Shown piece after piece: positions 4,636 to 44,209 of a stretch of DNA of 44,209 nucleotides (position 1 is its first letter; the number at the start of each line of letters is the position of its first letter). Both the position numbers and the translations under genes were made by a program. This DNA comes from a virus. Below the pieces are notes generated by a model. The model searched no databases. It saw only the letters and a program-made list of their open reading frames with translations, and was not told the DNA's origin. Location of the stretch: the IMG/VR virus record IMGVR_UViG_2582581264_000001, positions 1 through 44,209 of that record, one strand, 5' to 3'.

Positions 4636-4683
4636 GATCGCACAATACATATATGCGCGCGCGAAAATTTGGCCGCGCAAGCC

Positions 4684-4700: not shown

Positions 4701-4701
4701 C

Positions 4702-4740: not shown

Positions 4741-4751
4741 CCATTTCTAAG

Positions 4752-5454: not shown

Positions 5455-5593
5455 CGCAGCAAAAAAAATCTAAGTATTCCAAGTTGGAGTATAGGAACGC
5501 GAAACAGGAAGCCGTATCACTTTTTCATCATCGCGGTGGTGCGCCAGACAGAAAGACGGCGCACCGCCCCACCATCTGAACCGTGAGGCCATT

Positions 5594-8350: not shown

Positions 8351-8352
8351 GC

Positions 8353-23413: not shown

Positions 23414-24528
23414 CTCTTTCACTTCAAAATTTCACTTCTCTTGTGCAGGGTGCGGCGGCTGCGGTGCAGGGCGCATGTTCGACGCTGCTTGACCTCACAG
23501 TTGGTTCAGTGCTGCGGGCGATCTTGGAAGCCAATGCAGCGCTTGGTTTGTGGATGCAATGGCTAATCGTGCAGGTTCTAGCCGTTTCAAGGCTAAACAC
23601 CTCAACTGGCAGCGACGTTGACAGTTTTATTGAGCAGTTTGGCATGTCGCGCCTTCCTGCCATTGCATCCTCGGGCCAGCTTACCTTTTCGCGGTTTACT
23701 GCTACCGGCTCGGCTTTTGTCGCGGTAGGCGATCAAGCACGCACCGCAGGGGGGGCATATTTCACGGTAACAGCCGACACCTCAAACCCTGTCTATTCCG
23801 CCGCCCTGGCTGGCTATGTCGTGGCCGCCGGGACGGCAAGCATTACCGTTCCAGCCGTTGCGGCTGCCGCTGGTGCAGCCGGAAACGTGCAGGCCGGAGC
23901 GGTCAATCTGCTCGGCAATTCAATCTCAGGCATCGACACGGTGACGAACGCCGCCGCGTTTACCGGAGGCTTGGATGCAGAATCCGATACAGCTTGCATT
24001 GCCCGGTTTCCGCTCTTTTTAGCCAGCCTCGCGGGGGCTACCGTAAACGCGATTAAAGCGGCCATTGCGGGGGTTCAGCAAGGGCTTGATTATGCCATCT
24101 CCGAAAACGTCAACACTCAGGGGACCGCTCAGCTTGGCAATTTTGTGGTTACGGTTGATGATGGGAGCGGCAACCCTTCAGCGGCGTTACTGGCGGAGGT
24201 TAGCGGCGCTGTAAACGCGGAGCGACCAGTAGCCACAAGCTACTCAGTACAGGGGCCTACCGTCACATCCGCCGCCGTGACTTTCTCCTTTGATGCGCCT
24301 TCTACAATCAAAAGCAGCTTGATTGGCCCGGTACAAACCTCAGTAACAAACTTCATTAACCGGCTGACGATTGGCCAAACCCTTTCGCTCTCTCGCGTGT
24401 CAAATATCGCCTACAACGCAAGCGAATACATCTCAAACGTAACAAATGTGTTGATTAACGGGGTGGCAAGTGACTTGACACCTTCAGCCATGGGGGTTGT
24501 TCGCGCTTCCAGCGTGGTAGCCTCGTAA
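23410..24528 (+). CDS. baseplate J-like protein
   Basis: 372 aa with an ATGA overlap. Called by position and size relative to the W-like gene and the fibre genes. Confidence 0.7.
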   Translation: MTLSLQNFTSLVQGAAAAVQGACSTLLDLTVGSVLRAILEANAALGLWMQWLIVQVLAVSRLNTSTGSDVDSFIEQFGMSRLPAIASSGQLTFSRFTATGSAFVAVGDQARTAGGAYFTVTADTSNPVYSAALAGYVVAAGTASITVPAVAAAAGAAGNVQAGAVNLLGNSISGIDTVTNAAAFTGGLDAESDTACIARFPLFLASLAGATVNAIKAAIAGVQQGLDYAISENVNTQGTAQLGNFVVTVDDGSGNPSAALLAEVSGAVNAERPVATSYSVQGPTVTSAAVTFSFDAPSTIKSSLIGPVQTSVTNFINRLTIGQTLSLSRVSNIAYNASEYISNVTNVLINGVASDLTPSAMGVVRASSVVAS

Positions 24529-25255: not shown

Positions 25256-27250
25256 TTGGATAGAGTAATCGTTTACCCTAGCGCGATTCCGCTAGATACG
25301 GATATTTTGCAGCCCCAGCGGAATGAAATGGTTTCGCTTGGCTGGCTGTTGCAGTCTGTAATGGGCACCGAAACGGGCGCCGTTGGGTTGACCTGCACCC
25401 CCACGAACCCGGCAAGCCTAACCGTGAATATTGGTCCGGGCGCAATTTGGGCAAAATCCGAGGTTGATGCCAATTCCTTCGGCTCTCTCGCTGCGGACTC
25501 ATCCCCGCTTATGAAGATGGGTATTGCCGCAGAAGCGGCAGGAACCGATTTCACGCTTGCCGCTCCAGGTACGGCTGGCCAGTCAATCAATTATCTGATT
25601 GAGGCGTCCTTTGAAGAAGCAGACACAGACCCGGTTGTTCTGCCTTACGTTAACGCGGCAAACCCTTCTCAGCCATTCTCAGGGCCTAACAACTCTGGTG
25701 CTGCACAGAACAAGGTTCGCGCGCAAAAGGTTGCGCTTCAGCTTAAAGCCGGAGCAGCAGCAACGGCAGGCACTCAAGTTACGCCCGCCGTTGATGTTGG
25801 GTGGATTGGCCTTTATGTCGTTACGGTTAACTACGGACAAAGCGCCATCACCTCAACTTCAATCGCGCAATATGCAGGAAACGCCTTTCGCGGCCCTTCT
25901 CTGCTTGAGGTTATACAGTCCGGCGCGACGAATTTTGCTGTTGATAGCAGCCCCACGGCAAACGCTGTTATTTTGGCGTTCCGGCCCGCGCTGACAAACA
26001 CCACGCGGTTGACGGGAACCCGCATTGCCTTCCAGGCGGCCAATTCCAACACGGGCGCAACCAGCCTGACAGACGGCGTTTCGACCTGCACCCTATATGC
26101 CAACGGCGCGGCTATGGTGGGCGGCGAAATTGTGGGGGGCGCCCATTATGTTGCGGAGTATGCCGGAAACAATCAGTATAACCTGATTGCACAGAGCGCC
26201 GGAGAGGTTGCGGTTTCCGCCGCCACGCATGCAACGCATGCTGTAAATCTTGGCCAACTTTTTGAGACCCTTTGGCCTACGGCCAACGAAACCATTAATC
26301 CTACCGCTTTTTTTACGGTGGTTCTTCCCTCTGAAAGCAGCGGCGGCCTTACCTTGCCCTTGAACAAGGGGACCACGCCGGGGCAGCGCGTTTTTATCTA
26401 CGGCACCAACAGTGGCCCCGTAACGATTGCCACGGTAGATAATACTTTCAATATCCAATCCCCAAGCGTGATGCAAAACTCTTACACTCTGCCAAGCGTG
26501 TACGGTTGCTATGTTGAATTTCTTTGGGATGGCCTTGATTATCGCTATCAATCCGGCTCTCAGCCTGAGATTAGACCCGCCGTGCAAAGCTACCAGCCGC
26601 CTACACTCGGGCAAGTTCAGACTGCACTCAATGGCGTGGCGGCCTTCAGTATGCCCCGCCCGGGCGACCTGAACGCCGCTGGCTTGGGATGGAGTTCGTG
26701 GAACGCGGGGGACGGAAATATTCCCGTGGCTGGCTCTTACGGCATCGCTTGGACGGTTTCACAGACGGGAAGCGCCACCCCCAGCGCAAGCAACTGGCTG
26801 ACGCAAATTGCCTGGACAACGGCGGGCTTGCAATTCGTGAGGCAGAATGTTGATAACGCGGGCTGGGGGGCTTGGTCTCAGGTAGCCACAACCGCCGATC
26901 TTCAAGCATCTCAGGCGGTGCAGGCTACCTATTATAACGCGATCAACTACACCGCCAACTCCGTTACGAACATCACAACGTCCGTGACGTTTACAGCGCC
27001 AGCTACCGGAAAATTAGAGGTTATTGCAACCGCTGATTATTATTCGGGTTCAACTGACCTGTCAGTTTCAGCAACCAATGGAACGGTTGGATTTTTCCAG
27101 GCGTCCCGGTCTCCCGCTTCAGCGGGCGGCGCAGGCGCGGGGGTTGGGATTGTATCCGTGACAGCGGGGCAAAGCGTGACCATTCAGGCCAGCGCTTCGC
27201 AGGCCAGCGGCGGCCCGATGAATGTTGCGCTTTATGCCAAGTATATCTAA
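25256..27250 (+). CDS. tail fibre protein
   Basis: 664 aa, Ala/Gly/Thr/Ser-rich, TTG start with an AGGA RBS. Positioned after the baseplate genes. Confidence 0.75.
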   Translation: MDRVIVYPSAIPLDTDILQPQRNEMVSLGWLLQSVMGTETGAVGLTCTPTNPASLTVNIGPGAIWAKSEVDANSFGSLAADSSPLMKMGIAAEAAGTDFTLAAPGTAGQSINYLIEASFEEADTDPVVLPYVNAANPSQPFSGPNNSGAAQNKVRAQKVALQLKAGAAATAGTQVTPAVDVGWIGLYVVTVNYGQSAITSTSIAQYAGNAFRGPSLLEVIQSGATNFAVDSSPTANAVILAFRPALTNTTRLTGTRIAFQAANSNTGATSLTDGVSTCTLYANGAAMVGGEIVGGAHYVAEYAGNNQYNLIAQSAGEVAVSAATHATHAVNLGQLFETLWPTANETINPTAFFTVVLPSESSGGLTLPLNKGTTPGQRVFIYGTNSGPVTIATVDNTFNIQSPSVMQNSYTLPSVYGCYVEFLWDGLDYRYQSGSQPEIRPAVQSYQPPTLGQVQTALNGVAAFSMPRPGDLNAAGLGWSSWNAGDGNIPVAGSYGIAWTVSQTGSATPSASNWLTQIAWTTAGLQFVRQNVDNAGWGAWSQVATTADLQASQAVQATYYNAINYTANSVTNITTSVTFTAPATGKLEVIATADYYSGSTDLSVSATNGTVGFFQASRSPASAGGAGAGVGIVSVTAGQSVTIQASASQASGGPMNVALYAKYI

Positions 27251-27984: not shown

Positions 27985-28194
27985 ATGACAAAAGATAAAG
28001 AAAAAACCTTCACCGTTGATGATTTGACGGCGGAACGCATCGCGGTACTGGTTGAGTTGGCGGAAAACGCCCGCATTGGAAAGAAAATGCTGCATTGGCT
28101 GGTTGTGCTGGGCACAATCGGCGGCAGCATCGCGTTTTTCGCAAACAATGTCATGTCTTTCCTAAAGGCCATGCGTCCTGGGGGCATCCACTAA
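27985..28194 (+). CDS. small membrane protein (69 aa)
   Basis: C-terminal hydrophobic segment MLHWLVVLGTIGGSIAFFANNVM. TAATG overlap with the next gene. Confidence 0.5.
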   Translation: MTKDKEKTFTVDDLTAERIAVLVELAENARIGKKMLHWLVVLGTIGGSIAFFANNVMSFLKAMRPGGIH

Positions 28195-29246
28195 TGGCCC
28201 GTTCTGTCTCGGCTGACGCACTCACCGCAGCCCGCAACGCCTTGGCTGAATACGGCAGCCTGCGCAAAGCAGCGGCGGCTCTCGGCATTCCCCACACCAC
28301 CCTTCAATCCCGCATTGCCATGGCTGAGCGGAAGCTTGAGCGTGAGGAAACCGGCTTTGATATGCCGGAATTGCCTTCCACACTACCCACCGCGCAAGCG
28401 CTGATTGAGCGGCGCAAGGCGGAGTTTGAGCGCGTGGACGCTGCAAAGCAGGCTAGGCGCTTGATTGACGTGCCGGTGAAATTGGCCGGGCCGGTTGGTG
28501 TGTCGTGGTTTGGCGACCCGCACCTTGATGACCCCGGCACTGATATTGCCCTGGTGGAGCGCCACGTTGAGCTAGTGAAGCGCACGCCGGGTCTTTTCGC
28601 TGCGAATATCGGGGATACTGGAAACCATTGGGTAGGGCGCTTGGCCCGGCTCTATGGCGAACAGTCCACCAGCGCGGCGGAGACTTGGGTGCTAGTGGAG
28701 TGGCTAATTCAAGCCCTTCCCTGGCTTGTGATTATCAATGGTAATCATGGTTGCTGGAATGGTGCGGGAGACCCGTTGCGGTGGCTTATCCGCCAGCAGC
28801 CGGGCGCCTTTGATGACAATGGCGTGAGGCTGAATCTCACTTTTCCGAACGGAAAAAAGATCCGTGTCAACGCCCGTCATGACTTCCGGGGTCACAGCAT
28901 GTGGAACCCGGCCCACGGGCTTGCAAAGGCCGTGCAAATGGGTTGGCGCGATCATCTGCTTGTTGCCGGTCATACCCACGTTACCGGCTACAACGTGCTT
29001 AAAGACCCGGCCAGCGGCCTTATATCCCATGCGTTGCGGATTGCCAGCTACAAGACCCACGACCGCTATGCGGACACGCTAGGGCTTCCTGATTCAAACA
29101 TCACGGCCAATGCTGTTACGATCTTCGACCCCGAAGCCACCAGCGAGCGCAACCTTGTGACTGTTTTCCTCGACCCGGAGGAAGGTGCAGACTTTCTGAC
29201 TTGGAAGCGCGGGAAGTATGAGCAGGCCAAGCGCGCCAACGTATAA
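28194..29246 (+). CDS. calcineurin-like metallophosphoesterase with an N-terminal HTH domain
   Basis: Motifs GDPHLD, GDTGNHW, GNHG and GHTH occur in the canonical order. N-terminal HTH-like LRKAAAALGIPHTTLQSRI. Start at ATG 28194. Confidence 0.8.
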   Translation: MARSVSADALTAARNALAEYGSLRKAAAALGIPHTTLQSRIAMAERKLEREETGFDMPELPSTLPTAQALIERRKAEFERVDAAKQARRLIDVPVKLAGPVGVSWFGDPHLDDPGTDIALVERHVELVKRTPGLFAANIGDTGNHWVGRLARLYGEQSTSAAETWVLVEWLIQALPWLVIINGNHGCWNGAGDPLRWLIRQQPGAFDDNGVRLNLTFPNGKKIRVNARHDFRGHSMWNPAHGLAKAVQMGWRDHLLVAGHTHVTGYNVLKDPASGLISHALRIASYKTHDRYADTLGLPDSNITANAVTIFDPEATSERNLVTVFLDPEEGADFLTWKRGKYEQAKRANV

Positions 29247-29255
29247 GGCCACAAC

Positions 29256-29741
29256 ATGAAAAAACAGAGTGCCGCCCCTGATGGGGGCGGCTTGCGGTAT
29301 GACGACGAAAAGCCGCGCTATGATCTCATTCCACCCGACGCGCTCCACGCTCTAGCGGTGCATTACACTATTTCCCTGAAAAAGTATCCAGAAAGGAATT
29401 GGGAACGCGGCATGGCCTGGGGGAAATGCTTTGCATCCCTCATGCGACACGCTTGGGCGTGGATGCGCGGCGAAGATTTCGACCCGGAAACCGGCTCACA
29501 CCACATGATTGCAGCGGCGTGGAACGCCCTCGCAATCGCAACCTACCACATGCGCGGAATTGGAAACGATGACCGCCCCGGCTTCAACAAGGAAAAGCCA
29601 TGTTTTACTACCTCGCTACCCCATACTCAAAATACAAGGGCGGCCTGGATGCTGCTTATAAGATGGCCCTGGACGCTACGGCAAAAATTATGGGGATGGG
29701 CTATCCGGTCTATTCCCCGATTGTTCACGGCCACCCCGTAG
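29256..29741 (+). CDS. DUF5664-like (dATP/dGTP diphosphohydrolase N-terminal-type, MazG-related) protein
   Basis: LRYDDEKPRYDLIPPDALHALAVHY...KKYPERNWERG...LMRHAWAWMRGEDFDPETGSHHMIAAAWNALAI matches the family pattern as I remember it. The last 47 codons overlap the next gene. Confidence 0.6.
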   Translation: MKKQSAAPDGGGLRYDDEKPRYDLIPPDALHALAVHYTISLKKYPERNWERGMAWGKCFASLMRHAWAWMRGEDFDPETGSHHMIAAAWNALAIATYHMRGIGNDDRPGFNKEKPCFTTSLPHTQNTRAAWMLLIRWPWTLRQKLWGWAIRSIPRLFTATP

Positions 29742-29950
29742 CAGCCCGCGCAGGCATCCATATGACAGATCATGATTTCTGGATGAAGGTTGACGCGCCC
29801 ATGATGGAAAGCGCTAAGGGCATCATAGTTTACATGGCGACCGGATGGGAAGAATCCCGAGGGATGGCGCATGAAATCAAAGAGTTTGTCCGCATGCGCA
29901 AGCCAATTCTGCACATTCAGCCGTTTTTCCCTGAGCATCGCTCATGCTGA
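29600..29950 (+). CDS. DUF1937 / nucleoside 2-deoxyribosyltransferase-like protein
   Basis: MFYYLATPYSKY...GYPVYSPIVHGH...IIVYMATGWEESRGMAHEIKEF matches the DUF1937 pattern. AAGGAAAAG RBS. Confidence 0.65.
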   Translation: MFYYLATPYSKYKGGLDAAYKMALDATAKIMGMGYPVYSPIVHGHPVAARAGIHMTDHDFWMKVDAPMMESAKGIIVYMATGWEESRGMAHEIKEFVRMRKPILHIQPFFPEHRSC

Positions 29951-30390: not shown

Positions 30391-30918
30391 ATGGATAATT
30401 TTATACCGTGCCGCAATTTCACATTGCAGGAAGAAGGCGGATTCGTGGACAATCCGTGCGACCCTGGGCGCGCCACGAAATACGGCATTACCATCAAAAC
30501 GCTCAGCGCGTGGCGCAAGCGCGCTTGTACTGTGCAAGACGTTAAAGCGCTATCCTCCTTTGAAGCTGGCGCAATTTACCGTGCATGGTACTGGATTCCG
30601 GGCCTACCGCCAGGAATCGACTTGATGACATTTGACTTCGGCGTGAACGCGGGGGACCGCGAATCTGTGGAGCTATTGCAGCGAGCCGCCGGTTTTGTGG
30701 GTGACTTTGTTGATGGTGTGTGCGGCCCTGAAACGCGCGGGCGCGTGTCCGCGTGCAACCCCGTGGAGCTAATCAAAGCATTAGGAATAGCCCAAGAGGC
30801 ATTTTATAGAAAGCTTCCTACTTTTGTGGAGTTTGGTGACGGATGGACGAAAAGAACAGATCGCCGCGAAGCCGTCGCCCTGGGGATGGTCCCCAAAAAA
30901 ATGCAGATTGCAGCTTAA
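30391..30918 (+). CDS. GH108 family muramidase (endolysin) with a PG_binding_3-like C-terminus
   Basis: FTLQEEGGFVDNPCDPGRATKYGIT...YRAWYW...FDFGVNAG...LQRAAG...DGVCGPETR...GWTKR matches the GH108 signature. Confidence 0.85.
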   Translation: MDNFIPCRNFTLQEEGGFVDNPCDPGRATKYGITIKTLSAWRKRACTVQDVKALSSFEAGAIYRAWYWIPGLPPGIDLMTFDFGVNAGDRESVELLQRAAGFVGDFVDGVCGPETRGRVSACNPVELIKALGIAQEAFYRKLPTFVEFGDGWTKRTDRREAVALGMVPKKMQIAA

Positions 30919-32298: not shown

Positions 32299-32835
32299 AT
32301 GAAGCGCGAAAAGATTTTCGGCTTGCCGACCGGCAGGCCACTAGACCGGAACGCAAAGGCCCGGATTATGGCCTATGCAGCGGCATGGTCCGCACGCCAA
32401 CGCCAGCCAGGACAACACACCGGCCCATTGACGCGGGCTTATATGGACGTTTTGCGCGCCCTCCTTTGGGGCTTCCACAACGCTAAAACCGGCGCCTGCT
32501 TTCCCGGCTACGACGCTATTGCAAAGCATGCCCGGTGCCACCGCGACACAGTGCGCAAGGCAATTCGCATGCTTGAATTGTCGGGGCTGTTAACCTGGGT
32601 GCATCGCCTCCGCCGCGTTCCTGGCGCCGTGCTGCGGACAAGCAACGGTTACAGCTTCCGTGACCCCTCCCCCGCGCCGCAACCCCGCGAGAATCCTACT
32701 AAGGCGGAAAATTCGCCCGGAACCCAAAACCAAGATTCTTCTAATATAAAGATCGTGGTTTTAGACCCGGCAAACCGGCTTGACGCAGCCCTTATTAGGC
32801 TCGGGAAAAGCGCCGGAGCGTTGTCACCGGCATAA
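32299..32835 (+). CDS. winged-helix DNA-binding protein (plasmid/ICE-type; replication-initiator-like or regulator)
   Basis: GACFPGYDAIAKHARCHRDTVRKAIRMLELSGLLTW is a typical wHTH segment seen in proteins encoded on mobile elements. Confidence 0.5.
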   Translation: MKREKIFGLPTGRPLDRNAKARIMAYAAAWSARQRQPGQHTGPLTRAYMDVLRALLWGFHNAKTGACFPGYDAIAKHARCHRDTVRKAIRMLELSGLLTWVHRLRRVPGAVLRTSNGYSFRDPSPAPQPRENPTKAENSPGTQNQDSSNIKIVVLDPANRLDAALIRLGKSAGALSPA

Positions 32836-32853
32836 CCTCCCCGCTATTACAAG

Positions 32854-32904
32854 CTATCAGTGCTATCATCGATAGTTGACATATCTTAGCTATCATGTTT
32901 AATT
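32854..32904 (+). promoter_or_regulatory. best-defined early-type promoter: operators + TTGACA-N17-TTAATT
   Basis: CTATC (32854), then CTATC-ATC-GATAG (32863-32875) fused to TTGACA (32876-32881), a 17-nt spacer, and TTAATT (32899-32904). Confidence 0.65.
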
Positions 32905-32920
32905 GTTTCGTACCATACAA
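32903..32920 (+). promoter_or_regulatory. 18-bp conserved motif, copy D (TTGTTTCGTACCATACAA)
   Basis: Starts within the -10 hexamer and covers the predicted +1 of the promoter. Lies 10 nt upstream of ATG 32931. Confidence 0.6.
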
Positions 32921-32930
32921 AACAGAGCAG

Positions 32931-33653
32931 ATGACGATGACAGACAACCCTACCCGACAAGTTTATGTAGGTTTTTCAGAGGCTTATGAGCATTTTAACC
33001 AGGTGCTTTTTGAGGGTCGTTTGCCCGGTTGCATTATCACGATGCAGCGCCACAAGGGTGCGCTTGGGTATTTTGCGGGCGATAGGTTTGGAGAGATTGC
33101 GGGCGACGGCAAGACGGATGAAATTGCATTAAATCCGGTGCATTTTAAGGGGCGCACGGCAGAAGAAACGCTCTCCACGCTAGTTCATGAGATGACCCAC
33201 CTTGAGCAGCACCACTTTGGAAGCCCAAGCCGGGGCGGATACCACAACGCAGAATGGGCTAAGCTGATGAAGCGTGTGGGGCTGCAACCAACTGATACGG
33301 GCCGCGCTGGCGGCAAAGAAACCGGCCCATCTATGACGCACCTCATTGTTGAAGGCGGCCCGTTTGAGTCTGCTTGCCGCGCCCTTCTCGGGAAGGGCTT
33401 TGAAATCCGTTACAGCGACAGGTGGGGCGACGTTGATAATGATGGCTCTCGCTCCCGCGCCCCGTCACGGCCAGCCGGAAACGGTGACGACGAAGGCCAG
33501 GGAGAAGGGGAAGCCCCTGCGCCGCGCAAGAAAACCGCCAATAAAACGAAATTTACTTGCCCGGACTGCGGCGCAAACGCATGGGGCAAGCCTTCTCTCA
33601 ATCTCCTTTGCGGTGATTGCAGCGTGCGGTTTGTGTCTGAAGATGGCGAATAA
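32931..33653 (+). CDS. SprT-like zinc metalloprotease with a C-terminal zinc ribbon
   Basis: HEMTH (HExxH) motif in LSTLVHEMTHLEQHHFG, and C-terminal CPDCG...CGDC. Start at ATG 32931, downstream of the predicted +1. Confidence 0.75.
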   Translation: MTMTDNPTRQVYVGFSEAYEHFNQVLFEGRLPGCIITMQRHKGALGYFAGDRFGEIAGDGKTDEIALNPVHFKGRTAEETLSTLVHEMTHLEQHHFGSPSRGGYHNAEWAKLMKRVGLQPTDTGRAGGKETGPSMTHLIVEGGPFESACRALLGKGFEIRYSDRWGDVDNDGSRSRAPSRPAGNGDDEGQGEGEAPAPRKKTANKTKFTCPDCGANAWGKPSLNLLCGDCSVRFVSEDGE

Positions 33654-33675
33654 AAAAGGGGGCATAAGCCCCCTT
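33652..33675. terminator. hairpin between convergent genes (GGGGGC-ataa-GCCCCC)
   Basis: 6-bp GC stem. The A6 run upstream provides the T-run for the minus-strand par operon. The + strand tail is weak. Confidence 0.55.
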
Positions 33676-33678: not shown

Positions 33679-34017
33679 TCACAAAACCCGGCTTTTAGCC
33701 GTAGGTTGCAAGTCAAACTCCGGCACGTCATAACCGGCCTTCTTGGCTAGAGTGGCTATAAACTGCCTCATGCCAACGTCCCTGGACGCATCCAAAAGTA
33801 GCGAGCAAAATTCACGGGAACAGCGAAAGTTGACTTGCTCAAGCTTTTCACGCTGCGGCTTGGGAGGGCGTCCCCTGCCGCGTTGCTGCTCAACCGGCTC
33901 CGCTGGCTCGGCAACTGCTTGGGCTGGTTTGGGGGTTGTCGCAGGTAAATCCGCCGTTGCTTTAGAAATCTGGCTCACAAGCTCCGCCCCGGAGATTTTC
34001 TTTGCCTTCAACGCCAT
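33679..34017 (-). CDS. small partition partner protein (candidate centromere-binding, ribbon-helix-helix-like)
   Basis: 112 aa, translationally coupled (TAATG) to parA. Has a basic middle region (RGRGRPPKPQREK) followed by QVNFRCSREFCSLLLDASRDVG. Confidence 0.5.
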   Translation of the reverse strand: MALKAKKISGAELVSQISKATADLPATTPKPAQAVAEPAEPVEQQRGRGRPPKPQREKLEQVNFRCSREFCSLLLDASRDVGMRQFIATLAKKAGYDVPEFDLQPTAKSRVL

Positions 34018-34676
34018 TATGCAGCACTCCCAACACGGGCCGCAGGAATGGCCCCGATTTCGGTTAATTCGCCAATAAGCCGGTCAGCCTCAACCCCCAA
34101 CCGCCCACTAACAGGCAGGTTCCCGGTAAAGCTGGCCTTACGGAACGCGGATAGATGAGGCAGCGCGTAGCGCATGACGGGCAACCCTTCAGCCTTCAGA
34201 GCGTCAAGAGTCGCAGATTCAACAAGGCCGCCGGTGCGCCATTGCGTGCCGATTACCCTATAAGGAAGGGCGCGCCGCGCCGCTTTCCCAAGAGACTCAA
34301 TTTTGCGCGCTGTGCGGATAGCTTCGCGGGTGCTGCTTCTGTCTGGCATGCACGGCACAAGGATAAAGTCAGCGACGCTAATTGCGCTGGCGGCGGTTAG
34401 GTTGGCAAAGCCCGCCGTGTCAATCACAACTATATCACCGGCCTCTGCTTCCGCCTGGGCCGCGTCAATCACCTCAACCTCCCGGCACTCGGCAAGACAG
34501 CGAAACGGCGCGCCCTCGTAAACATTGGCATGCCAGTCGGAAAGCGTGGCATTTGCGTCAGCGTCTATCACGGTGACGGCATAACCTAGTTGCGCCAAGT
34601 TGGCCGACAGGCATTGCGCTAGAGTAGATTTCCCGGCGCCACCTTTTGAGGTGGCAATCGTTAGGATGGTGCCCAT
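34017..34676 (-). CDS. parA: ParA-family partition ATPase
   Basis: Deviant Walker A TSKGGAGKST, plus VIDADAN and VVIDTAG motifs. 219 aa. Confidence 0.9.
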   Translation of the reverse strand: MGTILTIATSKGGAGKSTLAQCLSANLAQLGYAVTVIDADANATLSDWHANVYEGAPFRCLAECREVEVIDAAQAEAEAGDIVVIDTAGFANLTAASAISVADFILVPCMPDRSSTREAIRTARKIESLGKAARRALPYRVIGTQWRTGGLVESATLDALKAEGLPVMRYALPHLSAFRKASFTGNLPVSGRLGVEADRLIGELTEIGAIPAARVGSAA

Positions 34677-34679
34677 AAT

Positions 34680-34722
34680 AAAACCCCCTTATGGCGGCAA
34701 CGCGCCGCATGTCGGGGGTTTT
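34680..34722 (-). promoter_or_regulatory. leader hairpin/terminator whose 3' arm contains the parA Shine-Dalgarno
   Basis: Minus strand reads AAAACCCCC-N25-GGGGGTTTT-att-ATG. The AAGGGGG of the 3' arm is the only SD-like sequence before parA. Confidence 0.55.
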
Positions 34723-34765
34723 ATCATATCTCGTCTATCAGAGATAGCGTTATATCTATGCTATC
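34723..34765 (-). promoter_or_regulatory. candidate par promoter/operator (or parS) region
   Basis: -10-like TATGAT (minus strand, 34728-34723), CTATC-AGA-GATAG (34735-34747), ATATC (34752) and CTATC (34761). Confidence 0.45.
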
Positions 34766-34771
34766 CTTGAA

Positions 34772-35320
34772 TTATTCGGGGGCGGCCTCATCCGTAACCC
34801 CCGCCGCCTCCACAAGCGCCGAAGCGCCCGCCGGGGCTGTCCCGTTGATCTTGTGCCAATGCTTAATCACCAGGGGGTCACGCTTATGCGATTCCACGGC
34901 GCCACGGTCCATCTCAGCCGCCCGCGTCCGCGCCTCATCGTGTGTAATCGGCTTGCCTGCCTTTCTGCATGCTTCCACCATCGCGCCTGCCACCGCCTGC
35001 CGCCACTGTGTCAGCTTTAACTCTGTTTTCTTCGGGGCGGGCACCTCCCCCGCACCAAGCTTAGCCATGGCGTCTGCCATATCGCCCGCGCGCGACAGAT
35101 AAGACCATAGCCCCAGCGTAGCTAGGTAATCCATCGACGCCTTGGGCAGTCCGGCGGTTGAGAACGAAAGAACGTCACCGCCGGGAATTGTCACGCGGAC
35201 TGTTCCCGCTCCGCCGTCCACAATGCCGCGACGGCGCTGGGCGCGCGGCTCCGGCGGCTCCCTATAAAATCGCCTGCCCTCATGCTGGGGCGCCGGAGGG
35301 GGTGCGGTTTCGTCACTCAT
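34772..35320 (-). CDS. hypothetical protein (182 aa)
   Basis: ORF track entry. Its start codon overlaps the stop codon of the upstream erf-like gene (ATAATG). Confidence 0.6.
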   Translation of the reverse strand: MSDETAPPPAPQHEGRRFYREPPEPRAQRRRGIVDGGAGTVRVTIPGGDVLSFSTAGLPKASMDYLATLGLWSYLSRAGDMADAMAKLGAGEVPAPKKTELKLTQWRQAVAGAMVEACRKAGKPITHDEARTRAAEMDRGAVESHKRDPLVIKHWHKINGTAPAGASALVEAAGVTDEAAPE

Positions 35321-37414: not shown

Positions 37415-37798
37415 CTAGCCGCGTTCGGTGTTGGGACTGCGGCGCGCCCTGCGCGGAATTTTTAGAGACTGCCCAGGCTCCAATTCACCAAGGCGCGAAA
37501 CCATTTCACGACTACAACGAGAAGATACAAGACCGCGATAAATGTAATCTAAAGTCACGCCAAACTTCGCACAAAACTCAATCATGCTCATAGGGTCAGG
37601 CATATTCATACCCAACTCATATTTTGACCACTTTGCTTGAGTTGTTCCGAGAATTTCAGAAAGTTCAAGCTGAGTTATTCCGGCCAATTCCCTTACTTGC
37701 CGGATGCGCTGGCCTATGTCCTTGCGGACTGTTTCCTCTACGGCTGTCCACCGTGCGCGACTACCAGCCTCACTGGTTGTTGTTTTTTCTTTTGTCAT
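37415..37798 (-). CDS. XRE-family (Cro/CI-type) HTH repressor candidate
   Basis: ATG 37798. IGQRIRQVRELAGITQLELSEILGTTQAKWSKYELG is a classic HTH_3 motif. No S24 peptidase domain. Confidence 0.8.
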   Translation of the reverse strand: MTKEKTTTSEAGSRARWTAVEETVRKDIGQRIRQVRELAGITQLELSEILGTTQAKWSKYELGMNMPDPMSMIEFCAKFGVTLDYIYRGLVSSRCSREMVSRLGELEPGQSLKIPRRARRSPNTERG

Positions 37799-38414: not shown

Positions 38415-38873
38415 ATGGCCGGAACAGTAAACAAAGTGATTCTTGTTGGGAATCTCGGGAAAGACCCCGAAGTTCGCAACACGCAAGGCGGGGGCAAAAT
38501 AGTCAACCTTAGCGTTGCAACTTCTGAGTCCTGGAAGGACAAAAACTCAGGCGAACGTAAGACGCTGACGGAGTGGCATCGCGTGGTTGTTTTTAACGAC
38601 AGCCTTGCAGATGTTGCCGAAAAATACCTCGAAAAAGGCGTAAAGATTTATGTTGAGGGCAAGCTTCAAACCCGCAAATGGACCGATCAGAGCGGCCAAG
38701 ATCGCTATTCAACTGAGGTGATTATTCCTCGGTTTGGCGGAGTCCTTACGATTCTGCAAAGCGTCAGCGGAGATGGCCAAAATGACGGACAGAGCCGCGC
38801 TACCGGACGGGCGCAAGGCGGGGGCGGAAGCCATGACAGCAGCGGTTGGAGTGACGATGAAATTCCGTTCTAA
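38415..38873 (+). CDS. ssb: single-stranded DNA-binding protein
   Basis: The OB-fold N-terminus [16 protein letters not shown]...WHRVVVF, a Gly-rich linker and an acidic tip DDEIPF. Confidence 0.95.
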
Positions 38874-38996
38874 GCGCCTCATGCGCCGCTTTTTTCATAG
38901 CTACAAGCGCCCATGCTTGAGCGCCGTGCAGTTGTTTGCGTGGGTGGCTGAAGGGGCCGCCCTGGCCGCGCTTTCGCTGATTGTGGGGCATTTCAT

Positions 38997-40481
38997 TTGA
39001 TTAACCTTCGCCCCTATCAAAGCGATGCTTTAGATGGTGTGCGCGCCGCCTATGCTGCGGGGCATCGCGCCCCGTTGTTGGTGGCGCCCACCGGGGCCGG
39101 AAAGACCATCATGTTTTCGGACGTTGCGCTACGCGCCGCTGAAAAAAATATGCCCACCCTAATCTTAGCGCACCGCCGCGAGCTTATCCGGCAAGCGTCA
39201 AAAAAGCTGACTCTTTCCAATGTGCCGCACGGCATTATTGCCCCCGGCTTCACCCCTACCCGCGACCTTGTGCGGGTGGGAAGCGTGCAGACCGTTGCGC
39301 GGCGCCTTGATAGGCCGGAGGCGCAGGGCTTCAAGCTTATTGTCATTGACGAGGCGCACCACGCGGTTGCCGGGCAATGGGACCAGATTATTACCGCCAA
39401 CCCTAAGGCGCGTCTGCTTGGGGTTACGGCTACGCCAGAGCGCCAGGACGGGCGCGGTCTCGGGGTGGCGGCTGGCGGTTGCTTTGACGTGCTGGTTGAC
39501 GGCCCGAAAATTGGCGACCTGATAGCAGATGGCTATTTGGTCCGCACTAAGACTTATGCGCCGTCCGTAGAGGCTGACGTGTCAAACGTGCCAATCCGGG
39601 GCGGCGATTATGTACCGGACGCGCTGGCGGAGGTGATGGACACGCCCGCGATCACGGGCGACGTGGTGGCGCATTATGCGCGCTACGCGCCGGGCCTGCC
39701 GACCATCGTTTTCTGTGCCAATCGAAAGCATGGGGAGCATGTCGCGCAAGCTTTCAGTGCTGCGGGATGGCGCGCCGCGTTTGCTGACGGCACCATGAAA
39801 GGCAAAGACCGCGACGCAGCCCTTGGCGGCCTGGAAACTGGCGCGGTTCAGGTGCTTTGCGTGGCGGACCTTGTGAGCGAAGGCGTGGACATTCCCACGG
39901 TTTCTTGCGTCATCTCAGTGCGCAAAACCACAAGTTTGGGATTGTGGATGCAGCAGGTAGGGCGGGGGTTGCGAACCGTTTACGCGCCGGGGTTTGATCT
40001 AAATGACCGTGCCGGGCGGTTGCTGGCCATAGCAGCCAGTAACAAACCGCACCTAATTCTACTTGACCATAGCGGCAACACGCTGCGCCACGGGTTGCCG
40101 GATACTGAGCGCGATTGGAGCCTTGACGGGAAATGCAAAAAGGAACGCACGGCACCAACATTGAAGCAATGCCCTGGCTGTTTTGCCATCCACCAACCGG
40201 CGCCTGTGTGCCCGCATTGTGGCCACGACTATAACGCAGGGAAGGCCACACTATCGGAGTTGCCGCTTGTGTCTGCCCCAGGCGAGTTGAAGGAAGTTGA
40301 TGAAGCCATGGCGGCGCGCATTGCGCAGCTTCGGAAAGGGAAGCTTACAGATATTCTCACGGGCAGCGAAACGCTGGCGGAGTTGCGGGAAATCGGGAAG
40401 GCGCGCGGATACAGCCCGCAATGGCCCTGGATGCAGTTTCAGGAAGCTAAGCGCCGCAGGGAGGCGAAAAAAGCAGCATGA
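38997..40481 (+). CDS. SF2 DEAD/DEAH-box helicase (ResIII-type)
   Basis: Walker A APTGAGKT, DEAH (VIDEAHH) and motif III GVTATPER. C-terminal CxxC...CxxC zinc ribbon. TTG start. Confidence 0.85.
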   Translation: MINLRPYQSDALDGVRAAYAAGHRAPLLVAPTGAGKTIMFSDVALRAAEKNMPTLILAHRRELIRQASKKLTLSNVPHGIIAPGFTPTRDLVRVGSVQTVARRLDRPEAQGFKLIVIDEAHHAVAGQWDQIITANPKARLLGVTATPERQDGRGLGVAAGGCFDVLVDGPKIGDLIADGYLVRTKTYAPSVEADVSNVPIRGGDYVPDALAEVMDTPAITGDVVAHYARYAPGLPTIVFCANRKHGEHVAQAFSAAGWRAAFADGTMKGKDRDAALGGLETGAVQVLCVADLVSEGVDIPTVSCVISVRKTTSLGLWMQQVGRGLRTVYAPGFDLNDRAGRLLAIAASNKPHLILLDHSGNTLRHGLPDTERDWSLDGKCKKERTAPTLKQCPGCFAIHQPAPVCPHCGHDYNAGKATLSELPLVSAPGELKEVDEAMAARIAQLRKGKLTDILTGSETLAELREIGKARGYSPQWPWMQFQEAKRRREAKKAA

Positions 40482-40783
40482 GCCAAACTTATGAAGTCAA
40501 TGCCCGGCTATGGGATGGCGTGCAGAAGTTGCGCGTCACAGTCTCGGATGAAGGCCACGCGCTGAGCGTGGAGGCAATCGAGGCTGATGCAGACCGCAAG
40601 CGAGTTCTGGCGAATATCTCAACCATGCTTGGCCGTGGCGTTTCGCCAATCGAGCTAAGCGTGCGTGCGGATGATTTCAAAGAAATCGTGAACACGCTTC
40701 GCGCAACTGAAAACCAGCACAATGCGCCGCGCCGGGCTGCGGCGCTGGCGGAACACGAAAAAAGGAATAAAAATGGCCAGTGA
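40478..40783 (+). CDS. hypothetical protein (101 aa)
   Basis: ATGA overlap with the helicase stop codon. Confidence 0.55.
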   Translation: MSQTYEVNARLWDGVQKLRVTVSDEGHALSVEAIEADADRKRVLANISTMLGRGVSPIELSVRADDFKEIVNTLRATENQHNAPRRAAALAEHEKRNKNGQ

Positions 40784-41168
40784 ATCAGACATTCAAGCCA
40801 AGATCATGCTGGCGATAGGGGGCCGTCCTGACGTGCGGATTTTCCGCAATCATGTGGGCTTCGGGTGGAGCGGCCAGTTGCTCAAGCAGGAAGGGGACCG
40901 CGTATTACTCAAGAACGCGCGCCCGGCAACTTTCGGCCTTGCGCCGGGGTCTGCCGACCTCATCGGCTGGCGCTCCATAACCATCAAGCCGGAGCATGTG
41001 GGCCGCAAGATCGCGGTTTTTATATCAGGCGAGGTGAAGGCCCTGCGCGGCAAAGCGGCGGAGGCCCAAAAGAATTGGGCGCGCATTGTGGATGCCGCCG
41101 GTGGTTTGGCGGCAATTTGGCGCACCCCAGCGGGCGCAATCGAGACTGTGGAAGGGGCGCTGATTTAA
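40773..41168 (+). CDS. VRR-NUC domain nuclease
   Basis: ESDIQAKIMLAI...GSADLIGW...VFISGEVKALRGKAAEAQKNW follows the PD-(D/E)xK VRR-NUC pattern. ATG 40773 with an AAAGGAA RBS. Confidence 0.7.
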   Translation: MASESDIQAKIMLAIGGRPDVRIFRNHVGFGWSGQLLKQEGDRVLLKNARPATFGLAPGSADLIGWRSITIKPEHVGRKIAVFISGEVKALRGKAAEAQKNWARIVDAAGGLAAIWRTPAGAIETVEGALI

Positions 41169-41380
41169 TGGACGTTAGCGAAAAAGAGATGAGGCGCGAC
41201 ATTGCAACTTGGTCATTCGTTACCTGTCGCCACAGCGTCTTGATCGCGGATGTGGAGGAATTGGCGCAATTCCTAATCCGCCGGGGCTGGCGGAAGGCTG
41301 ATGCGAATAGCGGGGGCGCCGTGATGGTGGGCGCTGATTTATCAACTTCGCCGGATTATGTGGTGGAGTTTTCGGCATGA
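41168..41380 (+). CDS. hypothetical protein (70 aa)
   Basis: TAATG overlap. This is the in-frame tail of track ORF 40865..41380. Confidence 0.45.
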   Translation: MDVSEKEMRRDIATWSFVTCRHSVLIADVEELAQFLIRRGWRKADANSGGAVMVGADLSTSPDYVVEFSA

Positions 41381-41652
41381 GTCACCTTGATGAAGCGCAC
41401 GCGCAAATAAACATCTTGCGCCGGGAGAGGGATGACCTAATGCACCGCGCCATATTGGCGGAACACGCGGCTTGGTGCGCGGCAGAAGAATTGTCGCACA
41501 TCGCAAAAAGCGGGGCGCAATCACCTTCGGTGGCGCGGGAGGCAATCGCCCTCATGCTGAGCCGGGGTTTTGGGAGGATGGAAAACGGACGCGCCTCCGG
41601 GCGTTTAAAGGAAATCCTCGGAAGGGCGCGGATTTCGCCGGAAAGCCTTTAA
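41377..41652 (+). CDS. hypothetical protein (91 aa)
   Basis: ATGA overlap with the previous gene. Confidence 0.5.
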   Translation: MSHLDEAHAQINILRRERDDLMHRAILAEHAAWCAAEELSHIAKSGAQSPSVAREAIALMLSRGFGRMENGRASGRLKEILGRARISPESL

Positions 41653-41671
41653 GCCATGACAGGCTGCTAAA

Positions 41672-42541
41672 ATGACCGCCCTGCCCCAAGAAATCGAAGC
41701 CCTGGCGTTGTTGGGCTGGCGGCTCTATCCGGCCAGCACGCGGAGCCGTGCAGCCCTTGTCAGCCAGTTTAAGGATGGAGCAAAGCCCCACGAATTAGCT
41801 ACGCATGACCTAGACCAGCTTGAAACGTGGGCGCGCCGATTTCCGGGGTGTAACTGGCGTGTTGTCATGGAAGGCTCCGGCATTATCGGGCTAGACGTGG
41901 ACGCGCCGGGAGATGACCATAACGGCGATGGCATAACCGCGTTGCGCGATCTTGTGGCCAAAAACACCCCCCTCCCCCCTCGCCCAACCACGCGAAGTGG
42001 CAGCGGTGGGTTTGCGCTGTTTTTCCGCGATAACGGCGCGCCGATCTGCCGCCGGAGCGGCTGGCCGGTGGCTGGGTTAGATCCCCGCGCCGGGCCGCTT
42101 ACGGTAACTGTGCCTCCCTCCACGCATCTAAGAACGCGCAACGCCTACAGGTGGGCGCCGGGGTTGGCGCCTTGGGAGTGCCCCTTACCCGAGGCGCCCG
42201 CGTGGTTGCTTAAAGCCTTAGCCCCTCCGCCTGAACCGCCTATACCCAAGCGCATGCAGCAGCGCCCGGCAACAGAACCGCGCGCCCGGCGGCGCTTAGA
42301 GCGCGCGGTTGATAATGTGCAATATGCAAAGCCCGGCACGCGCAATGCGGAGCTAAACCGGCAATCCTATGCGGTGGGCCGCTATGTGGGCGCGGGGCTG
42401 CTAGATCAGAATTATGTTATTTCCGTGCTATACACGATTGCGCGTAAATCAGGGTTAGCAGATAAAGAGGCGCGCGACACTATCCGCAGCGGGATGGCGT
42501 CGGGCGTTCGTAATCCAGTAACGACAACAGGAAACGAATGA
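41672..42541 (+). CDS. bifunctional primase-polymerase (PrimPol, AEP-family) N-terminal-domain protein
   Basis: LLGWRLYP..., the IIGLDVDAPGD acidic motif, SGSGGFALFF, and VPPSTH...YRW. Confidence 0.75.
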   Translation: MTALPQEIEALALLGWRLYPASTRSRAALVSQFKDGAKPHELATHDLDQLETWARRFPGCNWRVVMEGSGIIGLDVDAPGDDHNGDGITALRDLVAKNTPLPPRPTTRSGSGGFALFFRDNGAPICRRSGWPVAGLDPRAGPLTVTVPPSTHLRTRNAYRWAPGLAPWECPLPEAPAWLLKALAPPPEPPIPKRMQQRPATEPRARRRLERAVDNVQYAKPGTRNAELNRQSYAVGRYVGAGLLDQNYVISVLYTIARKSGLADKEARDTIRSGMASGVRNPVTTTGNE

Positions 42542-42723
42542 ACATTGAAGATGGCAGGCTTGACCGCGTTTGGGCGGAAAACTGCTTTGCAGACCGGGGC
42601 CGCGTCCTGACGGGTTGGGCATCTCACTATTGCCCGGACTTTGACGGCCTCACGATTGATGAAACTTGCCCGCAATGGCCTTGCCTATGCGCGGATGAAT
42701 TGAAAGAGCGCAATCATGCCTGA
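42538..42723 (+). CDS. small Cys-containing protein (61 aa)
   Basis: ATGA overlap upstream and an 8-nt overlap with the helicase start. Five cysteines, including CPQWPCLC. Confidence 0.45.
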   Translation: MNIEDGRLDRVWAENCFADRGRVLTGWASHYCPDFDGLTIDETCPQWPCLCADELKERNHA

Positions 42724-44209
42724 TTATGGCGGCGATATTGACACAGCCGGAGATATGGAAGGCGGATATAGCGCACCACGCCCTAACCTGCCCTTTCAGG
42801 CTCTCGGTTATGACCGCAGCACGTTCTTTTTTCTGCCAAACAGAGGGGGGCAGGTGTTGGAGTTTTCGGGCCGCGAGCTTGGTTCAGCCGGGGCGTTGCT
42901 TCAGCTTGCCCCGCTTTTCTGGTGGGAATCCGAATGCTCCGGCAAAACCGGCATGGATACAAAGCAAGCGAATGATATGGTTTTGCGCATGTCTTACGCG
43001 GCGGGGCCGTTTGATGCGGGCCGCGTGCGAGGCCGTGGCGTTTGGCTGGAAGATGACGGGCGCCCCGTTGTGCATGCTGGCGATCATTTGGCCGTTGATG
43101 GTCAAATCATCTCGCCTACTGAATGGGAAGGGCAGGGCATCTATGAGCGCGCGCCTAAGCTTGGCGTTTCCTTCAGCGCAGAACCGGCAGAAACCGAGGA
43201 AGCAAAACGCTTCCTTGACCTATGCGCCGCCCTCCCTTGGGAGGATGCAAACGACGATGGCGTGGACACTAGCAGCATGGGCCGCATGCTGGCCGGGTGG
43301 ATAACCGTTTCAGCGTTCTGTGGGGCGATGCCGTGGCGGCCACACGTCTGGATTACTTCGGAGGCTGGCCAGGGTAAAAGCTGGCTGCTTGATAATATCC
43401 TGAAGCCCATGCTTGGCGGGGCTGAGTTGCGGGTGCAATCCAAGACGACAGAAGCCGGGTTACGTGCCGCCCTTGGCCGGGACGCGCGCCCGGTGGTGTT
43501 TGATGAAGCAGAAACGCAGAACCAGCGCGATGCCGACCGCATGCAGCAGGTTCTTGACCTTGCCCGGCAGGCATCAAGCGAGGATGGCGCGGATATTGTG
43601 AAATCAACACAGACCGGACAGGCACGCCGATTCAGAATCAGGTCTATGTTTGCCTTTGCAAGCGTCAACGTGGCGCTCTCGCAAGCGGCTGATGAAAGCC
43701 GGACCATTGTTCTTTCGCTGCGCCCGGCACGGGATAAAGACGCGCGGGCCGCGCATTTCGAGAAGCTGAAAAGCTTGCAGGCCGAAATCGTTACCCCTGG
43801 TTTTGCCGCTCGGCTTCGCGCCCGCACGCTCTCGCTGTTGCCGACTATTCGCGCAAACGCGGAGGTTTTCGCGTCCGCGATTGCGAGGGCAGGGGGGTCA
43901 CGCCGCACAGGCGACACAGTTGGTGTACCTCTCGCCGGTGCATGGTCTCTCCGTTCCCGGCGGACTGCCACCAGGGAGGAAGCGGACGCATTTGTTGCGG
44001 GCACTCCATGGGTACGGGCAGCGGTGGAACGCATCGAGAGCGAGCCGGAATGGAGGCAATGCCTTAACCGGCTGCTCGGGCAGCGCATCCGCCTTCCTGG
44101 CAGGGTTGAAGAAGTCCCCGTTGGCGAGTTGCTGGATATTGTGGGAACCCCCTACAGCACGCCAGAAATGGCCGGAGGGGATGACATGCCGGGTGATGGA
44201 GGGACAGCC
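42716..44209 (+). CDS. SF3 (D5/P4-alpha-like) replicative helicase, 5' part; continues at 1..386
   Basis: Missing from the ORF track because it has no in-window stop. Hand translation MPDYGGDIDTAGD... shows Walker A SEAGQGKSW and Walker B RPVVFDEAET. The combined length with 1..386 is about 594 aa. Confidence 0.8.
   Translation, partial: MPDYGGDIDTAGDMEGGYSAPRPNLPFQALGYDRSTFFFLPNRGGQVLEFSGRELGSAGALLQLAPLFWWESECSGKTGMDTKQANDMVLRMSYAAGPFDAGRVRGRGVWLEDDGRPVVHAGDHLAVDGQIISPTEWEGQGIYERAPKLGVSFSAEPAETEEAKRFLDLCAALPWEDANDDGVDTSSMGRMLAGWITVSAFCGAMPWRPHVWITSEAGQGKSWLLDNILKPMLGGAELRVQSKTTEAGLRAALGRDARPVVFDEAETQNQRDADRMQQVLDLARQASSEDGADIVKSTQTGQARRFRIRSMFAFASVNVALSQAADESRTIVLSLRPARDKDARAAHFEKLKSLQAEIVTPGFAARLRARTLSLLPTIRANAEVFASAIARAGGSRRTGDTVGVPLAGAWSLRSRRTATREEADAFVAGTPWVRAAVERIESEPEWRQCLNRLLGQRIRLPGRVEEVPVGELLDIVGTPYSTPEMAGGDDMPGDGGTA
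44115..44209. repeat. Terminal direct repeat, right copy (identical to 1..95)
   Basis: Letter-for-letter identity with 1..95. Confidence 0.95.

Follow-up and report, generated by a model that had tools for sequence, protein, structure and literature searches.

A candidate phage-plasmid of Acidocella aminolytica with a type Ib-like ParA-partner cassette

How does a temperate phage persist in its lysogen when it seems to bring no integrase? This question is raised by IMG/VR virus record IMGVR_UViG_2582581264_000001, whose whole stretch of 44,209 bases is called the window here. Beyond the end of its late operon, the window carries a gene for a ParA-type ATPase that is coupled to a gene for a small basic partner. 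An earlier note, made from the letters of the window, had proposed lysogeny as a low-copy extrachromosomal replicon instead of integration. The present analysis supports this proposal: no recombinase was detected, contigs of the phage close on themselves and are free of host DNA, and the ParA-partner pair and a nearby HTH_36 protein are of plasmid type. We consider it probable that the window is a plasmid prophage (phage-plasmid), which is partitioned by a type Ib-like ParA and its small partner and does not integrate.

Phage-plasmids have been delimited in the literature by a full set of temperate-phage genes, plasmid partition and/or replication genes, independence from chromosomal integration, and extrachromosomal replication in the lysogen (PMC7969092). 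The window has genes of the first two kinds, and no integrase was detected in it. Its temperate-phage set is complete, with terS, terL, portal, scaffold, sheath, baseplate J, tail fibre, GH108 endolysin and XRE repressor genes, and it is syntenic with the phages phiKX1 and Hyacinthe. Homologues of par genes alone do not prove a plasmid state (PMC7969092).

The ParA-partner cassette and its plasmid relatives

ParA has the deviant Walker A motif of its superfamily close to the N terminus (Table 1). Against Pfam, it matches VirC1 (9.7e-14; 51.7 bits, cutoff 24), CbiA (4.5e-11), AAA_31, ParA, and MipZ, and it passes the gathering cutoffs of VirC1 and CbiA. The match to phrog_164, annotated as ‘ParA-like partition protein’, has an E-value of 5.5e-29. 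The nearest solved structures are ParF (4dzz) and the ParA of TP228 (5u1g), with E about 5e-10 and residues 4-185 aligned. Residue 4 of the window protein is aligned with residue 3 of ParF, and an N-terminal DNA-binding domain is absent. The best reading of this sequence is a small ParF-like (type Ib) partition ATPase.

The start codon of the partner gene overlaps the stop codon of parA by one base (TAATG; GCATAATGGCG). The earlier note had described a type-I-like ParA (KGGAGKST) that is coupled to a basic partner of 112 amino acids (aa), and the motif, the overlap, the basic character of the partner (isoelectric point, pI, 9.6), and the coordinates are as it had claimed. The partner itself gave no match in Pfam, PHROGs, NCBIfam, or the sequences of the PDB, and a profile of its family also found no match in the PDB. 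The ParBc domain, which marks parABS systems of the ParB/Srx type (type Ia), was not found in it by Pfam, NCBIfam, or PHROGs.

A single-sequence search with the partner returned only the partner. The family search was redone with an alignment seeded from plasmid loci, and this profile search yielded 367 matches in 97 representative clusters. The matches listed carry neither Pfam domains nor informative names. When 40 partner-encoding loci were compared by tblastn, each of the 40 had a ParA homologue upstream of the partner gene, on the same strand, and the partner of the window is 43-47% identical to open reading frames (ORFs) directly 3' of plasmid parA homologues.

An AlphaFold2 (AF2) model of the partner, based on a 61-sequence alignment, has a helix at residues 10-20, a disordered linker, an extended segment at about 61-66, and helices at 68-77 and 83-93. 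The C-terminal unit is modelled with a predicted local distance difference test score (pLDDT) of about 85. In the family consensus, G-S-T stands ahead of helix 2, and the N-terminal part has an invariant Lys and a near-invariant Arg. ParG and omega are ribbon-helix-helix centromere binders with a ParA-activating N-terminal peptide. Because its pattern resembles theirs, the partner is regarded as a putative ribbon-helix-helix centromere-binding protein with an N-terminal ParA-contact peptide, an assignment that the model and the consensus only suggest.

ParA homologues with 50-71% identity are abundant in metagenomes and in Acetobacteraceae. They lie in plasmid backbones, in some of which parA is followed by an ORF of 102-106 aa and then by RepA_C. 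One mobilisable plasmid-like contig (L098) has the order parA, 96-aa ORF, HTH_36, TraD, and MobA/MobL relaxase, and in another locus (L096) an HTH_36 gene adjoins a 71%-identical parA with an ORF of 114 aa. The complete circular plasmid NZ_CP025059.1 of Roseomonas mucosa encodes a ParA with 54% identity and, directly after parA at 4178-4489, a partner homologue of 103 aa that is missing from its gene table. The partner family appears to be under-annotated. A tblastn search of the plasmid collection with the partner gave no match, despite the homologue in the Roseomonas plasmid, and a scan of IMG/VR viral contigs with ParA found no relatives. A scan of genome contigs gave at least two loci.

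In the plasmid homologues L011 (5051-5750) and L013 (11051-11600), arrays of 8-mers (CCTACCCC six times and GTCGGCAC six times) begin within the partner gene and extend a short way past it, ahead of RepA_C. No such array follows the partner gene of the phage. The arrays are probably iterons or a second centromere.

The HTH_36 protein of the window is encoded near the par genes. It has weak matches to PHROGs annotated as ‘replication initiation protein’ (4e-6 to 8e-3), and it is 33% and 31% identical to the HTH_36 proteins beside the parA-partner genes in L096 and L098, respectively. It is a candidate for a plasmid-type replication initiator. The shared ParA-partner pair, together with the HTH_36 similarity and the initiator matches, indicates by sequence comparison that the phage carries the rep-par core of a plasmid family.

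Cis-acting sites and replication candidates

The spacer upstream of parA (34677-34771, 95 nt) contains one perfect 13-bp palindrome, one further box, and one hairpin. The palindrome lies 58-71 nt upstream of the parA ATG, and palindrome and box together cover 58-90 nt upstream; this segment is the candidate par operator or centromere. The earlier note had called the DNA upstream of parA repeat-rich, which is fair with regard to the palindrome, the box, and the hairpin with its 14-bp stem, and overstated with regard to their extent, which is modest.

The palindrome, CTATC-N3-GATAG, is present at eight sites in the genome (four perfect, four with one mismatch), compared with 0.35 expected, and shuffled sequences never contained more than two. 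The palindrome occurs with this 3-nt spacer only. Seven of the eight sites are intergenic, and all are located in early regions. The same half-sites are found at related cassettes: across 26 non-redundant family loci other than the window, the 200 nt ahead of parA contain CTATC/GATAG 40 times against 8 expected (5-fold), with 18 of the 26 loci contributing. Boxes that recur right before the start codon in family loci include TATGCTGCTATC(C) and GATAG(C)nGCCT, and in two plasmids a perfect palindrome of different spacing stands 35-41 nt ahead of parA. These patterns are most simply read as a motif of the par module that would be bound by the partner. The other seven palindromes are either extra centromere or regulatory sites or the targets of another protein.

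GCTATC boxes were also considered as operators of the CI-like repressor. This is unlikely, as none of these boxes is present between the repressor gene and the rightward early genes, where none of the eight palindromes is found either; a further ground against it is the enrichment of the motif at the par promoters of unrelated plasmids.

A bolder proposal is that the partner is both a centromere binder and a genome-wide regulator of the prophage, and that the palindrome spread with the plasmid-derived cassette to seven promoter-like early sites. We put this forward tentatively and consider it rather doubtful. If it were true, the assembly of the partition complex would be coupled to the silencing or timing of early genes, in a multi-centromere arrangement that recalls N15, where several centromere sites are dispersed in regulatory regions. 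The hairpin over the parA start would then be an added switch, so that par would be expressed only from its own promoter in lysogeny.

This hairpin is stable: the RNA of 34660-34775 (minus strand, 116 nt) folds with -42 kcal/mol (z = -4.9), and none of 200 shuffles was as stable. It may be the terminator of the ERF operon, a gate on parA translation, or both. A second hairpin, of the intrinsic-terminator type, follows the partner gene and is predicted to end the par operon, between the convergent par and SprT genes.

The same sites can be read in another way, in which the pair does not partition the phage. The partner might mainly be a regulator at the eight palindromes, or the pair might interfere with resident plasmids or host segregation, and the phage would persist by pseudolysogeny or in a carrier state. 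The palindrome does occur beyond par in promoter-like intergenic early regions, the parA start is buried in a strong hairpin, and par homologues also occur in certain phages whose plasmid state is not established (PMC7969092). On the other hand, plasmid backbones of related bacteria have this pair as their standard maintenance module, accompanied by a Rep gene as in the phage, and the presence of an identical element in three independent type-strain assemblies argues for stable inheritance. Regulation and partition are also compatible, since in type Ib systems one ribbon-helix-helix protein, such as ParG or omega, can do both. A pair without a partition function is therefore regarded as unlikely.

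For replication, the earlier note had pointed to an iteron/AT-rich region and to the phage's own replication proteins, and both were recovered. Twelve of the 29 copies of the GGTTAC hexamer in the genome are clustered at 2169-2420, in both orientations, around an AT-only core. The field adjoins a gene for a 211-aa DUF6456-like protein (2458-3096; phrog_16492), and one draft assembly breaks in the array. It is likely to be an origin, for lytic or plasmid replication. The replication proteins comprise a single-stranded DNA-binding protein (SSB), a DEAD/ResIII helicase, a Prim-Pol, and a 594-aa primase.

Genome closure, host assemblies and the search for recombinases

The ends of the window are an exact repeat of 95 bp, and the 594-aa primase ORF, which begins at 42716, crosses the window end and resumes at 96-386. 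The contig is therefore a closed genome of 44,114 bp, and the same join is also seen in independent contigs. It is the complete genome of a temperate contractile-tailed phage of Acidocella aminolytica DSM 11237. No host flank and no tRNA is present in these 44,114 bp.

NCBI accessions for ParA, the partner, and the HTH_36 protein come from three assemblies of A. aminolytica 101 = DSM 11237 (GAN…, GBQ…, SHF…). In GCA_000964385.1 (A. aminolytica 101 = DSM 11237), contig BANC01000030.1 has 44,154 bp, that is 44,114 + 40, and is the reverse complement of the window, with 100% identity across the fetched stretches (about 43.3 of 44.2 kb). It starts at window position 23233, within a gene of the baseplate region (23045-23413), and passes unbroken over the window junction. 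Because the break points of the two contigs differ, the same circle was closed by two assemblies at arbitrary intragenic points. The earlier note would have searched host assemblies for the contig as a separate circular replicon; in them, the element appears as a self-closing contig of its own, once with the 95-bp overlap and once with a different break. Logan contigs of 16,830 and 26,700 bp from SRR4096427, identical in sequence, tile the circle, and the sheath gene is present on four contigs, each of 20-50 kb. No phage-host junction was found in the four assemblies (the three of A. aminolytica DSM 11237 and the Logan assembly of the read set), in which the contigs of the phage consist of phage DNA only. 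These host-free, self-closing contigs are consistent with an extrachromosomal replicon in the lysogen, as indirect evidence.

A further contig, BAPR01000043.1 (14,442 bp), spans the window from 32056 to 2383 and ends in the iteron array and in a terminator hairpin. Reading these ends as att sites, or the contig as a mini-plasmid derivative, was rejected, as they are typical assembly breaks at a repeat and a hairpin. In addition, the sheath gene on a fourth contig of 20-50 kb fits a late region on a second contig of the BAPR assembly.

For integration functions, 79 ORFs, overlapping alternatives included (essentially all coding capacity), were compared with Pfam at E<=0.1. PHROGs was scanned with all early ORFs and with nine genes in the segment from the tail fibre to the late-operon end, and NCBIfam with ten selected ORFs. 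Six-frame tblastn was run on the circularised genome with eight queries: the phiKX1 integrase, two serine resolvases, and rve, IS110, DDE, and IS605 proteins. Pfam, PHROGs, and NCBIfam gave no integrase, resolvase, or transposase, and tblastn, with a best E-value of 0.10, gave nothing recombinase-like. The sole ‘recombinase’ label in the genome belongs to the ERF annealing protein. The earlier note had seen no tyrosine or serine recombinase and no DDE transposase and had suggested profile searches for integrases; the absence was upheld in all of these libraries and in tblastn.

Integration could nevertheless proceed by a highly divergent recombinase or by one of the host (XerCD), with circles from excised, replicating, or packaged permuted DNA out-covering the integrated copy. 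Early ORFs without an assigned function, such as the 182-aa ORF at 34772-35320 and the DUF6456-like gene at 2458-3096, would leave room for such an enzyme, and the draft assemblies are compatible with a minor integrated form. Against this stand the lack of any recombinase signal in profile libraries and six-frame tblastn, and four assemblies that contain no phage-host junction. Moreover, the full-length contigs break within genes and not at an att-like site, and the slot of int and a tRNA gene in phiKX1 is filled here by plasmid maintenance genes. An integrated prophage is hence considered quite improbable. A linear plasmid with hairpin telomeres as in N15, or a Mu-like transposable phage, both known integrase-free temperate modes, was rejected as extremely improbable because protelomerase and transposase are absent: there is no protelomerase-sized ORF, tyrosine-recombinase fold signal, or rve/DDE transposase, two assemblies close the molecule at different points, and no variable host flanks were seen.

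Several points weigh against a partitioned plasmid prophage. ParA stays below the cutoff of the NCBIfam ParA_partition equivalog (NF041546; 4.4e-29, 101.5 bits vs 180) and is therefore a member of the ParA superfamily, not an equivalog of NF041546. The monomer model of the partner has a mean pLDDT of 70 and no meaningful Foldseek match. The CTATC/GATAG palindrome is missing from some loci, including the closest one, L096 (71% ParA identity), and therefore the binder of the eight sites could be another phage regulator. The ‘Rep’ call for the HTH_36 protein is based on weak profile matches and context, and an initiator of the RepA_C type is absent. The same circular assembly would result from circularly permuted DNA of virions or from copies excised by spontaneous induction in the culture. 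Finally, some phages, such as the SPO1-like ones, have par genes although they are not proven to be plasmids (PMC7969092).

If the window is a plasmid prophage, its maintenance might be achieved as follows. A plasmid-derived module of ParA, the coupled partner, and the HTH_36 protein occupies the slot that holds int and att in an integrative relative, at the far end of the leftward early operon and next to the end of the late operon. Dimers of the partner would bind the CTATC/GATAG boxes upstream of parA, and possibly the seven other palindromes, and this binding would both build the partition complex and keep the par promoter repressed. The conserved basic N-terminal peptide of the partner would stimulate ATP hydrolysis by nucleoid-bound ParA, and the resulting ParA gradient would move sister copies apart. 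In lysogeny, replication would have the HTH_36 protein as its initiator, the iteron/AT-rich field as its start site, or both, and lytic replication would be served by Prim-Pol/primase, helicase, and SSB. The hairpin over the ribosome-binding site of parA probably insulates par from the ERF operon.

The window would then be a candidate phage-plasmid from an acidophilic host of the Acetobacteraceae. In full-text literature searches, no paper connected phage-plasmids with Acidocella, and Acetobacteraceae were named alongside them only in passing. It would also be another swap of rep/par for integration functions at the same slot and support the exchange of maintenance modules between phages and plasmids. 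The small-ParA-partner family, with its 97 representative clusters and conserved promoter-proximal boxes, is identified here and is unannotated. The parA-partner-upstream, HTH_36, and iteron regions are candidate parts of low-copy vectors for acidophilic Acetobacteraceae.

Genes were assigned by longest-ORF tiling, checked against public gene calls, and annotated with Pfam and PHROGs. The repressor, which the earlier note had described as a non-cleavable XRE protein, consists of HTH (helix-turn-helix) domains only, with no S24 peptidase domain by Pfam, and has a weak NCBIfam match to phage RstR-like proteins.

Table 1. Positions of genes, repeats and candidate sites in the window
Feature	Position	Strand	Remarks
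parA	34017-34676	-	219 aa; begins MGTILTIATSKGGAGKSTLAQ; deviant Walker A SKGGAGKST at residues 10-18
ParA partner	33679-34017	-	112 aa; pI 9.6; 19 K/R vs 13 D/E
HTH_36 protein	32299-32835	+	178 aa; PF13730 4.5e-9, above cutoff; near par genes
Candidate par operator/centromere	34735-34766		Palindrome CTATCAGAGATAG at 34735-34747; box GGATAGCATAG at 34756-34766 (-)
Hairpin over parA start	34675-34727	-	14-bp stem; 3' arm holds parA Shine-Dalgarno (GGGGG) and AUG
Intrinsic-terminator-like hairpin	33652-33675	-	AAGGGGGC-TTAT-GCCCCCTT, then T-run; right after partner stop
Palindrome copy	1458-1470		Perfect; intergenic
Palindrome copy	1899-1911		One mismatch; intergenic
Palindrome copy	3829-3841		One mismatch; 5' edge of ORF 3626-3844 (-)
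Palindrome copy	4453-4465		Perfect; intergenic
Palindrome pair	4752-4764 and 4797-4809		One mismatch each; flank three GCTATCA boxes 18 bp apart
Operator cluster	32853-32895		Three GCTATCA boxes including palindrome CTATCATCGATAG at 32863-32875; HTH_36/SprT-like promoter region
Iteron/AT-rich field	2165-2433		Six copies of TGTAACCAA; perfect 18-nt inverted repeat; AT-only core 2328-2368
Exact terminal repeat, 95 bp	1-95 = 44115-44209		Contig closes to 44,114-bp circle; join inside primase ORF
Late operon	about 5919-32010	+	terS, terL 6856-8172, portal 8347-9855, scaffold, capsid, sheath 15135-16715, tape measure, baseplate J 23410-24528, fibre 25256-27250, GH108 endolysin 30391-30918
Two rightward genes	32299-32835 and 32895-33653	+	HTH_36; SprT-like
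Leftward early operon	37181 to 33679	-	114-aa ORF, Gp157/Gam-like, ERF, 182-aa ORF, ParA, partner
XRE/CI-like repressor	37415-37798	-	127 aa as called publicly; HTH_19, HTH_3, HTH_31
Rightward early replication block	38415-44209	+	SSB 38415-38873, helicase (DEAD/ResIII) 38997-40481, phrog_93 endonuclease-like 40722-41168, Prim-Pol 41672-42541, primase from 42716 (phrog_35358 1.3e-102)
Block of small leftward genes	400-4400	-	

Other regions of the window also deserve description. Upstream of terS, about 1.5 kb (4400-5900) are gene-poor and contain three GCTATCA boxes at 18-bp spacing and runs of GCGTT (5020-5046 and 5102-5117); this may be a pac site or a regulatory region. The 16-mer GTATGGTACGAAACAA occurs twice, at 1847-1862 and 32903-32918, each time between an operator cluster and a gene start, namely that of a Cys-rich 107-aa gene (1488-1811, minus strand) and that of the SprT-like gene (32895-33653, plus strand). 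The pair looks like a duplicated promoter or leader. The SprT-like zincin has a C-terminal Cys-rich CxxC…CxxC motif, and an LPD29 domain protein is encoded at 830-1456 on the minus strand. Polyvalent proteins encoded by phages and conjugative plasmids typically contain LPD29 and SprT-like domains.

Unusual genes are located between the tail fibre and the lysis genes (28095-29950). They include a 383-aa HTH protein (28095-29246), which matches phrog_7339 (annotated as DNA repair exonuclease) and has metallophosphoesterase-type motifs, and a dATP/dGTP diphosphohydrolase (PF18909), which is overlapped by a DUF1937 / nucleoside 2-deoxyribosyltransferase-like gene. Taken together, the genes give a hint of functions in the nucleotide pool or in DNA modification.

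Relation to other phages and partition systems

Among deposited phages, the closest virion modules are those of the Ralstonia phages Raharianne/Hyacinthe (portal 53% identical) and the Komagataeibacter phages phiKX1/phiKX2 (portal 47%). These phages share with the window a collinear order of terminase, portal, scaffold, capsid, sheath, and baseplate genes. In phiKX1, an integrase gene and tRNA-Met fill the space that separates the last late gene from the leftward early operon; in the window, HTH_36, SprT, partner, and ParA genes stand at this position. No ParA is annotated in phiKX1, and the early regions are unrelated to those of the window. When 14-24 kb of the window were compared by megablast with the phage and plasmid collections, the only match was one of about 100 bp in ssb (Kozakia plasmids), and the portal gave no tblastn match in the plasmid collection.

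Phages that carry a par cassette in place of an integrase follow a lifestyle that is already documented (PMC7157519, PMC7969092). In about 20% of cluster A mycobacteriophages, the integration cassette is replaced by parABS in a collinear position, with replication functions closely linked, and the copy number of such prophages is about 1-2.4 per cell (PMC7157519). These mycobacteriophages and Gordonia phages (RedRock, Alma, Miko, and others) show the same collinear swap of par for integration, downstream of the virion genes, and low-copy extrachromosomal maintenance is theirs (PMC7157519). Their ParA proteins are about 30% identical to that of the window over 80-90% of the length. These phages differ in that they have larger ParB proteins, of which that of RedRock recognises parS arrays of 8-bp direct repeats (PMC7157519), while the window has a 112-aa partner and candidate 13-bp palindromes; the host of the window is an alphaproteobacterium, and its virion module is unrelated. 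Less ordinary in the window are the dispersal of the palindrome to eight sites, the hairpin that covers the start of parA, and the unannotated partner family with its conserved boxes at promoters.

P1, N15, SSU5, and the alphaproteobacterial pLM21S1/RhEph10 (PMC7969092) resemble the window in combining a full phage gene set with plasmid replication and partition genes. They do not integrate into the chromosome, and the same is probable for the window. P1 ParA and N15 SopA are of type Ia, unlike the ParA of the window, and no Cre- or TelN-type recombinase is present in the window. The Ti plasmid protein VirC1 of Agrobacterium is the best single Pfam match for the ParA of the window and works with a ribbon-helix-helix partner. 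It is unlike the window protein in other respects: the score against NF010423 is 58 bits with a cutoff of 313, the context is that of phage early genes with no T-DNA or relaxosome, and the partner is not VirC2-like.

The ParF-ParG system of TP228 and its relatives (type Ib) share most with the cassette. In both, a ParA of about 200-220 aa with a deviant Walker A motif and no N-terminal HTH is followed by a small partner with a flexible basic N-terminus and a beta-alpha-alpha C-terminal domain (for the window, as predicted), and operator/centromere repeats, which are candidates in the window, lie upstream of parA. In contrast to TP228, the partner of the window has no sequence similarity to ParG, and its cis sites have another sequence and are dispersed over the genome. 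As judged from these comparisons, the window would work like the parABS phages but outside their ParB family, and mechanistically it would be closest to systems of the ParF/ParG type (type Ib).

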